Assembly (NCBI RefSeq): GCF_003334255.1
Contig: NZ_QOWU01000031.1
Direction: 5' to 3' (one strand)
DNA: 58,190 bases
Source of the DNA: Escherichia coli
GTDB taxonomy: Bacteria; Pseudomonadota; Gammaproteobacteria; Enterobacterales; Enterobacteriaceae
Shown one piece after another: positions 55,622-57,487 of the stretch. The translations under genes were made by a program, and so were the position numbers. Every line of letters begins with the position of its first letter. Position 1 is the stretch's first letter. The notes under the pieces were generated by a model. It ran no database searches, was not told the DNA's origin, and saw only the letters and a list, made by a program, of their open reading frames with translations.

Positions 55622-55990
55622 TTAGCCTGGACGCACTCTTTTTTGATCGCGTTTAGCCAGACCATCAACCACCAGATTCCACGAATCGTTGATCAGATCG
55701 CGAAGTAACGCTTCGGAGATTTCTTCGCCGGGATACACTGAAATCCAGTGCTTTTTATTCATGTGATACCCTGGCTTAATGCTTGGGTATATTTGCTGAT
55801 TTAACAGGGATTTTTGTGGATCGGACTTCAGATTGATAAAGGGGACGCCGCGTAGCTCCGACGACAGCATAAAAATCTTGCCGCCAATTTTAAAAACATC
55901 GAACTCCGGGCCAAAAGGCCAGCAAAGCTCGACAAAGGGTAACTCAAGGGCCAGGCGTTTCGCCGTTTCGTGCAGTGATTGCTTATCCAT
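55622..55990 (-). CDS. ybdF: Uncharacterized small protein
   Basis: 122 aa from the internal Met ([13 protein letters not shown]...); synteny. Confidence 0.75.
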
Positions 55991-56054
55991 AAACGTTCCT
56001 TTAGGCGAAGGAGAATAAGCAAAGTATGCCGCGAAGTACGGCGATAATCGACGT

Positions 56055-56303
56055 TTAATCCGCCAGCGAGAACCAGCGTCGCCAGATAAAGCGCAGAACA
56101 AAATACTCAATAGCGCCCAGCACTAAAAACCACAGACAAAACAATAAAGTGTAAAGCTGACTAAGATCCATCAGATGGAACATGGTCACCAGTTTTTGTG
56201 CCAGCGCCAGCCCCAGTGCGGGGGCGGGCAGCAGCAGGCAAGAGAGGAAAGCCATCAGCAAAATGCCTGCTGCGGTGGTCAAGGTTTCTAAAGGGTGTTT
56301 CAT
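56055..56303 (-). CDS. ybdJ: Small membrane protein of unknown function
   Basis: 82-aa ORF with two hydrophobic helices; synteny. Confidence 0.75.
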
Positions 56304-56368
56304 AACATTGTTAAATGTAAGTTAAAACACCATTGTCAGGGATATTCTTCTGTAAGGCAATTCCCGGC

Positions 56369-57487
56369 TTAGTCACCGGCCCAGATCTCACAATGCTTTT
56401 TCACCAGCCCAATCAGCGAGCCGCCATCGGCGACGAAATCGCGCATTAGCTGCGCTTCATTCAGACCGCTGACGACCTGGCGATGCAGGGCCTCAATCGC
56501 GCTCGATGCACCAATTTTATGTGCGGAAGGGGCGATTTTTTCCAGCAATCGCAAGGTATCTTCCGTTAGCGGTCGACGATCTCCAGTGTGCGGATCGGTG
56601 ATGACGCCTTCAAGCCCATAGCGACAGGCCTGGAAACGGTTGAATTTATACAGCAGGTAATCTTTTTCCTGATGTTTAAACGGGCGTTCCGTCAGTAACC
56701 AGTGGGCGGTAGCCTGAATTAATCCCGCCATATTTACTGCGTGGCTAAGGGTTAACGGGGTATCCATCACCCGAACCTCCACCGTGCCAAAATGAGGACT
56801 GGGGCGAATATCCCAGTGCAGATCTTTAATGCTGTCGATCATCGTGGTGTAACTCAGACAGCGAAACAGGGCTTCAAATTGTTGCCAGTTACTGACCCAC
56901 GGCATCGGGCCATTATCAGGAAAGGCGGAAAAAATATTCGGTCGTGAGGAGGCAAAACGCGTATCCGTTCCCTGCATATATGGCGACGCGGCGGAAAGGG
57001 CGATAAAGTGCGGCACAAATCGTGACAAGCCGTGCAGCAAATAAATGGCGTCATCGCCACTGGCGCAGCCAACATGGACATGCTGACCAAAAACGGTCGC
57101 CTGCTGAATGAGATAACCAAAGTTTTCCAGCGTGCGTTGATAGCGTTCGTTATCGCATACCTCCTGACGCTGCCATTTCTGAAACGGGTGCGTGCCACCG
57201 CCGCAAATTTCCAGATGATGGTCTGTGGCTGCCTGCAATACGACTTTCTGCATCGCTGAAAACTGCCCGGCAGCCTGGTTGATATCACGGCAAACATCCG
57301 TCGCCAGCTCCAGCATACTTTCGGTGATATCGTGCTTTACCTCTCCGGCCGTGATCTTATTTTTAACCGCGTCAATCAGCATTGAAGAGTCCTGGCTTAA
57401 GTCATAGCCCGGCGGATTAACCACCTGCATTTCCAGTTCAATACCGAGGGTAAAAGCTTCAGAAACATGAAAATCGGGTAATGGCAT
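56369..57487 (-). CDS. ybdK: Carboxylate-amine ligase (glutamate-cysteine-ligase-2 family)
   Basis: 372-aa ORF; synteny. Confidence 0.85.

Follow-up and report, generated by a model that had tools for sequence, protein, structure and literature searches.

Three genes, ybdK, ybdJ, and ybdF, in a 58,190-bp stretch of Escherichia coli DNA (contig NZ_QOWU01000031.1 of assembly GCF_003334255.1; hereafter the window) are the subject of this report. In E. coli these genes form the 5' part of a published operon, ybdK-ybdJ-ybdF-nfsB-mscM, and the window has the same genes on the same strand in the same order (PMC4161252). In Salmonella, Klebsiella, Enterobacter, and Citrobacter, the ramR-ramA (romA) multidrug-resistance locus has the same flanks, with ybdJ on one side and ybdF-nfsB on the other; the E. 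coli site differs in lacking romA, ramA, and ramR, so that ybdF, its upstream partner lost, stands directly behind ybdJ. The product of ybdK belongs to the YbdK/GCS2 ligase family (PF04107; PDB 1R8G and 1TT4; Lehmann et al. 2004), and the protein encoded in the window is the crystallized protein itself, with no difference in sequence. A fourth likeness is to pupylation: the Pup ligase PafA is thought to be derived from a GCS2-like ligase, and here too a ligase gene adjoins a small open reading frame.

Our conclusion is that ybdK, ybdJ, and ybdF are very probably three ordinary, separately regulated genes that are adjacent only in the Escherichia lineage, and that they do not make up a dedicated three-gene system. 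All three are known and annotated; the crystal structure, the weak ligase activity, the operon map, and the ramR-ybdF overlap have already been published. What the present analysis adds is modest: a synteny census, two promoter footprints, and the observation that the ybdJ leader has no Shine-Dalgarno sequence. An earlier first-pass annotation had described a head-to-tail trio on the minus strand beside hokE. That description is correct in order, sizes, coordinates, and families, as judged by the RefSeq annotation, the open reading frame list, and profile matches, and it describes an ordinary, known locus; its suggestion about function was partly right. Positions 54500 to 58190 of the window are 100% identical to E. 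coli K-12 MG1655 and to many other K-12 records. The genes of the published operon are listed below from the RefSeq annotation, with which the open reading frame list agrees for the first three.

56369 to 57487, minus strand: ybdK, 372 amino acids, ATP-dependent carboxylate-amine ligase of the YbdK/GCS2 family
56055 to 56303, minus strand: ybdJ, 82 amino acids, DUF1158 inner-membrane protein with two hydrophobic helices
55622 to 55990, minus strand: ybdF, 122 amino acids, MmcQ/YjbR family
54875 to 55528, minus strand: nfsB, the next gene after ybdF in the published operon, with its own intergenic promoter
53520 to 54767, minus strand: ybdG/mscM, with which the published five-gene operon ends

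Gene order across the Enterobacteriaceae

The comparison set contained one genome per species and comprised 80 loci encoding YbdK at 70–100% identity, all of the Enterobacteriaceae type. The positions of YbdK, YbdJ, YbdF, NfsB, YbdG, PheP, HokE, EntD, RamA, RomA, and RamR were mapped by tblastn, and inserted genes were confirmed with NCBIfam. The tight ybdK-ybdJ-ybdF trio, and adjacency of ybdJ and ybdF itself, occurred in only five loci, all of them Escherichia-type. In other genera ybdJ is separated from ramR by ramA on the opposite strand, usually accompanied by romA; the common gene order outside Escherichia is ybdK, ybdJ, ramA, romA, ramR, ybdF, nfsB, with only ramA and romA pointing the other way. 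The gene for the TetR-family repressor, ramR, adjoined ybdF in all 34 non-Escherichia loci that hold ybdF. At this junction the ramR stop codon and the ybdF start codon share one base, as TAATG or TGATG (e.g., positions 12070–13013 of locus L012 and 13134–14083 of locus L016), an overlap that had already been noted in Klebsiella and Salmonella (PMC3117140). Because the ramR stop overlaps or abuts the ybdF start, the arrangement suggests that YbdF is co-expressed with RamR and perhaps works with it. Five taxa, Pseudescherichia, "Escherichia sp. ESNIH1", Superficieibacter, and relatives (L037, L038, L040, L071, and L073), had ramR followed by nfsB and no ybdF.

The ybdK-ybdJ pair was less restricted. 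Both genes were present in 72 loci; they were adjacent and co-oriented with gaps of 64–159 bp in 46 loci and were split in 26. In 10 of the split loci the separation was 2.2–3.4 kb, the Kosakonia insert being a chemoreceptor gene (L017, 11332–13239). In the other 16, from Enterobacter, Leclercia, and Lelliottia, it was 7.4–7.8 kb, and on the opposite strand the insert encoded a resistance-nodulation-division (RND) efflux permease, its periplasmic adaptor, and a P-type ATPase (L059, 11076–18096). Two loci carried unexpected names. One labeled Marinobacter sp. B9-2 (L002) was 96–100% identical to E. coli in the mapped proteins, and one labeled Chryseobacterium sp. 18061 (L074) had an Enterobacteriaceae-type locus much like L076; both look contaminated or mislabeled.

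The interval in E. coli that corresponds to the Ram genes is the following:

55991 to 56054, minus strand: ybdJ-ybdF junction, 64 bp, Escherichia-specific; the site of romA-ramA-ramR in other genera

A search for homologs of this spacer outside Escherichia returned only chance matches of 12–14 bases. A remnant of ramA or ramR in the spacer was considered and rejected, since such 12–14-mers were all that was found and no convincing alignment with ramR 3' ends was obtained. No chromosomal ramR-ramA pair was found in E. coli, only partial matches to the RamA family. A RamA-family gene about 82% identical to Salmonella ramA was present in about 160 complete E. coli genomes, where 176 of the 185 matching places were plasmid-borne. 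The genera around Escherichia carry ramRA at this site, and the most parsimonious course of events is accordingly its loss in the Escherichia stem.

Transcription of the E. coli genes

In the window the spacers are short, 65 bp between ybdK and ybdJ, 64 bp between ybdJ and ybdF, and 93 bp between ybdF and nfsB. The first-pass annotation had proposed that the trio is co-transcribed and had called for operon mapping, and published strand-specific RNA sequencing (RNA-seq) supplies the map: the primary transcript of the operon ybdK-ybdJ-ybdF-nfsB-mscM spans all five genes (Conway 2014, mBio, PMC4161252). A ybdK-specific transcript increases in stationary phase, when the nfsB-mscM transcript vanishes, and the authors accounted for these sub-transcripts by a secondary (S) promoter inside the operon and an internal terminator (PMC4161252). 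Transcription of nfsB starts within the ybdF-nfsB spacer.

Co-transcription therefore exists, but the unit is five genes whose two ends are regulated in opposite directions. The proposal was right as to a read-through transcript and stopped short at ybdF, omitting the run into nfsB and ybdG/mscM; the Escherichia-specificity of the arrangement is added here. The same annotation had held that independent transcription with unrelated expression would speak against a trio. The expression data go part of the way, since the ybdK-specific and nfsB-mscM transcripts behave oppositely; yet the genes are also transcribed together (PMC4161252).

A pattern scan found no terminator-like site in the ybdK-ybdJ, ybdJ-ybdF, or ybdF-nfsB spacer. 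The folding z-scores of the three spacers were −1.65, −1.75, and +0.19, respectively, which are not unusual; for comparison, −2.65 was the score of the following hairpin, the strongest of the terminator-like kind that the scan found on the minus strand:

54848 to 54865, minus strand: terminator-like hairpin just 3' of nfsB, seven G-C pairs followed by TATTTCCTCT

Intrinsic termination within the spacers was thus rejected as the source of the ybdK-specific transcript, the pattern scan being empty and the folds ordinary.

Natural deletions

The trio was intact in 5,090 of the 5,426 complete E. coli genomes, and about 320 lacked full coverage. In the O89m lineage, an O-antigen cluster flanked by insertion sequences lies between nfsB and ybdK and replaces ybdJ and ybdF (PMC6128206). 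E. coli AR_0151 (L082, 661–13937) matched this description; it had an O89-type O-antigen cluster with IS903B and IS26 flanks, and ybdJ and ybdF were gone. IS26 lay immediately downstream of ybdK, and in this one genome checked the YbdK protein accession was the same as that of K-12. In a metagenomic contig a deletion had removed the 3' end of ybdK, all of ybdJ and ybdF, and the 5' end of nfsB, leaving a protein, P0181, that is an in-frame fusion of YbdK residues 1–345 to the C-terminal part of NfsB; the source may have been a nitrofuran-resistant isolate. AR_0151 and P0181 show that ybdK can be kept without ybdJ and ybdF.

Candidate promoters of ybdK and ybdJ

Three candidate elements upstream of ybdK and ybdJ are conserved between loci:

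57518 to 57524, minus strand: candidate sigma-S-type −10 element CTATACT (C at −13); its start is 37 nt before the ybdK ATG
56332 to 56360, minus strand: candidate ybdJ promoter, with −35 TTGCCT (56355–56360), a 17-nt spacer, and −10 GACAAT (56332–56337)
56310 to 56326, minus strand: direct repeat TTTAAC-N5-TTTAAC in the ybdJ leader

Sigma-S promoters are marked by a −10 element of the TATACT type with a C before it, at −13. The exact heptamer CTATACT was found 32–42 nt before the ybdK ATG in 68 of 81 loci, and its flanks are very divergent between genera. Published expression data point in the same direction. In the transition of E. coli O157:H7 to stationary phase, ybdK changed by log2 +2.98 and ybdG by log2 −2.36. 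Upon inhibition of LolCDE, ybdK rose 7–15 fold along with the RpoS-regulon genes osmY, katE, and otsB, a response that the authors ascribed partly to sigma-S. In genomic systematic evolution of ligands by exponential enrichment (SELEX), RNA polymerase carrying RpoS gave a peak inside ybdK. From the promoter consensus together with these expression data, we infer that ybdK is a sigma-S general-stress gene. The first-pass annotation had named stress as one of two possible functions; for ybdK such a role is plausible, being supported by the stationary-phase induction and the conserved sigma-S-type −10 element.

A different ybdK promoter, TTGCCT-17-TACCAT, has been published from SELEX with RpoD. 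It falls at 57904–57932 on the minus strand, inside hok/sok and 417 nt upstream of the ybdK ATG; we did not adopt it, and it may be a promoter of the sok antisense RNA.

For ybdJ, the motif TTGnnn-N16-18-GACAAT precedes the gene in 69 of 73 loci, and none of the 26 loci with ybdJ and ybdK more than 1 kb apart lacks it. Because the motif travels with ybdJ, the gene seems to form a transcription unit of its own throughout the Enterobacteriaceae. None of the 73 leaders contained a Shine-Dalgarno core. Between the candidate −10 and the ATG sits the repeat, TTTAAC-N5-(A/T)TTAAC (56310–56337 in the window, and at the same place in L007 through L080), which might act as an operator or as an A/U-rich enhancer of translation. 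A single-sequence fold of the E. coli leader gave a hairpin that would sequester the start codon; RNAalifold predicted no pairs in a consensus of 20 diverse leaders, and the hairpin was therefore not supported. In a search for a marbox upstream of ybdJ, the best score averaged 9.63 of 14, versus 10.11 for shuffled sequences, in a test of low power that did not clearly detect the divergent known marbox of nfsB either. Expression of ybdJ was increased 33-fold in a multidrug-resistant Salmonella strain, the rise that the marbox search was meant to account for.

These results do not support the trio as a unit: the three genes are adjacent in Escherichia only, ybdF is tied to ramR elsewhere, and ybdJ keeps its promoter motif at 2–8 kb from ybdK.

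Products of the three genes

Compared with other genera, ybdK, ybdJ, and ybdF had ratios of nonsynonymous to synonymous substitution rates (dN/dS) of 0.05–0.13 (0.05–0.09 for ybdK and 0.05–0.13 for ybdJ). This strong purifying selection indicates that all three are real genes.

YbdK matched the NCBIfam equivalog NF010040 with 580.6 bits (cutoff 425) over residues 4–370 and was identical to PDB 1R8G chain A over all 372 residues (E = 2.6e-260); its glutamine-synthetase-type fold is thus solved. The GhExE signature, which marks the Mg/ATP site of carboxylate-amine ligases (PMC2588565), is present as GIELE at residues 15–19, and PF04107 (GCS2) was precomputed for its protein cluster. YbdK fell below the curated cutoff of every glutamate–cysteine ligase equivalog in NCBIfam; the best was NF010043, with 279 bits versus a cutoff of 409, and the rest were lower. 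NCBI naming places the protein in a separate YbdK family, and many sources call it a glutamate–cysteine ligase. Published work cites a weak or low-rate ATP-dependent gamma-Glu-Cys ligase activity of YbdK in vitro. Methylglyoxal stress, which consumes glutathione, did not raise RNA polymerase occupancy on ybdK.

YbdJ matched PF06643 (DUF1158) over its full length (residues 1–79 of 79; 1.5e-45), and its hydropathy profile had hydrophobic segments at about residues 5–36 and 44–74. Among 1.84 billion proteins the family forms about 60 clusters at 50% identity, all of them highly identical and many fragmentary; at 90% identity there are 616 clusters. It is confined to the Enterobacteriaceae. The C-terminus is variable (SLAD, SLAG, SLAS, AI, KT, or RG), without a conserved Glu or Gln at its end.

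YbdF matched PF04237 (YjbR; 4.3e-24) and NCBIfam NF007603 (260.5 bits, cutoff 183). Relatives with solved structures (PDB 2A1V, 2FKI, and 2KFP) have a "double-wing" fold. DNA binding by the MmcQ/YjbR fold has been predicted from its structural likeness to the C-terminal domain of phage T4 MotA, and YbdF is by that analogy a putative DNA-binding protein.

Other features of the window

Upstream of ybdK the window contains the following:

57793 to 57948: sok, an Rfam match beside hokE and outside ybdK-ybdJ-ybdF
57940 to 58092, plus strand: hokE, the next gene after ybdK (RefSeq annotation)
58169 onward: insertion sequence element, which follows the single hokE copy of K-12

RefSeq also annotates a frameshifted "hypothetical protein" pseudogene at 57703–57971 on the minus strand, overlapping hokE/sok. 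Several Escherichia and Leclercia genomes (L004, L005, L006, L048, and L051) have two tandem hokE copies upstream of ybdK, where K-12 has one. Besides sok, the Rfam scan gave only two chance matches below threshold. A Hammerhead_II match at the pheP/ybdG boundary (53476–53591, plus strand) scored 22.8 bits (gathering score, 37; E = 0.31) and is most likely due to chance. None of the three products of ybdK, ybdJ, and ybdF matched an anti-phage defense system in PADLOC.

Alternative explanations

The explanation we favor, separately regulated genes brought together by history, can be put as a sequence of steps. In the layout common to other Enterobacteriaceae, ybdF is translationally coupled to ramR through the 1-nt stop/start overlap. 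The Escherichia lineage would then have lost romA-ramA-ramR, and because these genes are absent, ybdF now lies 64 bp behind ybdJ. The ybdK gene would be transcribed from its own promoter, with the conserved sigma-S-type −10 element, upon entry into stationary phase and under envelope stress; ybdJ, with its leader devoid of a Shine-Dalgarno sequence, would have a conserved promoter motif of its own; and nfsB-mscM would be served by an exponential-phase promoter of their own. Because no terminator-like site is present in the three spacers, transcription begun upstream of ybdK can read through ybdJ, ybdF, nfsB, and mscM, giving the published five-gene operon. By this account ybdJ and ybdF would be functionally unrelated to ybdK, and the likeliest product of YbdK is a gamma-glutamyl amide, formed in cells that are stressed and not growing.

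Several points weigh against this explanation. The ybdK and ybdJ genes are adjacent and co-oriented in 46 of the 80 loci, and the order ybdK, ybdJ, ybdF, nfsB is kept almost everywhere, which could exceed what inertia would produce. Some co-transcription of ybdK, ybdJ, and ybdF occurs in E. coli itself, as the published RNA-seq shows, and the internal terminator proposed in that study was not located in the spacers by pattern scan or folding. The two promoters are candidates seen as phylogenetic footprints, and the assignment of one to sigma-S draws on the general consensus and on indirect expression data. Finally, that ramRA was lost, and not gained elsewhere, is a judgment from parsimony.

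Alternatively, the trio might be a dedicated module in which YbdK modifies or works with YbdJ, by a Pup-like or other peptide-modifying ligation, and YbdF is a DNA-binding regulator. The modified-peptide idea was worth testing because no family is closer to the Pup ligase PafA than GCS2 (PMC2588565), and the single strand, the 64- to 65-bp gaps, the lack of a terminator-like site between the genes, and the co-transcription in E. coli all fit it. The comparison across genera largely refutes it, however, and we regard it as highly improbable: the genes adjoin in Escherichia only, opposite-strand genes separate ybdK from ybdJ in 16 loci, and ybdF, missing from five taxa, is coupled to ramR wherever else it occurs (34 of 34 loci). 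YbdJ is also ill suited to be a tag. Pup is a disordered tag, whereas YbdJ is a membrane protein of about 60 clusters confined to the Enterobacteriaceae, without a conserved terminal Glu or Gln and without a conserved linkage to ybdK, and no proteasome or depupylase context was seen; YbdJ as a Pup-like tag was therefore rejected. The hint of a modified peptide in the first-pass annotation accordingly fails where its hint of stress held up; besides the variable C-terminus and the narrow distribution of YbdJ, AR_0151 keeps an identical YbdK without ybdJ and ybdF. A narrower version would make only ybdK and ybdJ an ancestral functional pair, with YbdJ as a membrane anchor, regulator, or transporter-like helper and ybdF unrelated. 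The 46 adjacent loci, with their 64- to 159-bp gaps, span many genera, and when the two genes are split, both keep their neighborhood and orientation. Yet 26 loci tolerate inserts of 2.2–7.8 kb, opposite-strand operons among them, and always keep the ybdJ promoter motif; ybdK has a separate conserved −10 element; the E. coli ybdK-specific transcript ends before ybdJ; the 33-fold rise in the Salmonella strain is a figure for ybdJ taken alone; and AR_0151 retains ybdK without ybdJ. Such a pairing is quite improbable.

Other possibilities concern YbdK apart from its neighbors. It could be a second, stationary-phase glutamate–cysteine ligase that backs up GshA in glutathione synthesis, in which case the adjoining genes would be irrelevant. 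The cited gamma-glutamyl:cysteine ligase activity, the name glutamate–cysteine ligase in many sources, and scores on the corresponding NCBIfam models, though under the cutoffs, favor this idea. The activity is nevertheless described as weak or of low catalytic rate, the best score is far below its cutoff (279 versus 409 bits), and NCBI keeps YbdK as a separate family. In addition, gshA mutants of E. coli are not known to make glutathione, although ybdK is intact. Because YbdK scores under the equivalog cutoffs and methylglyoxal does not raise polymerase occupancy on its gene, we consider a backup role possible but somewhat unlikely. A further, two-part reading makes YbdK a sigma-S general-stress ligase whose true product is other than gamma-glutamylcysteine and, jointly, makes ybdJ and ybdF leftovers of the Ram multidrug-resistance module, YbdF being an accessory of RamR/RamA and YbdJ a membrane protein of the Ram regulon, both kept by E. 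coli after ramRA was lost. The second part draws on the position of ybdJ and ybdF flanking ramA/ramR in every other genus examined, on the coupling of ybdF to ramR, and on the 33-fold rise of ybdJ in Salmonella. Taken together, the two parts are rather unlikely to be both correct.

Implications

As a discovery the ybdK-ybdJ-ybdF run matters little; the useful result is the negative one. The trio is no guide to the substrate of YbdK, since its genes came to adjoin in Escherichia, which has no ramRA. The conserved sigma-S-type promoter makes stationary-phase cells the place to seek the YbdK product. The invariant coupling of ramR and ybdF in Klebsiella, Salmonella, and Enterobacter makes YbdF worth testing in the clinically relevant RamR/RamA resistance switch.

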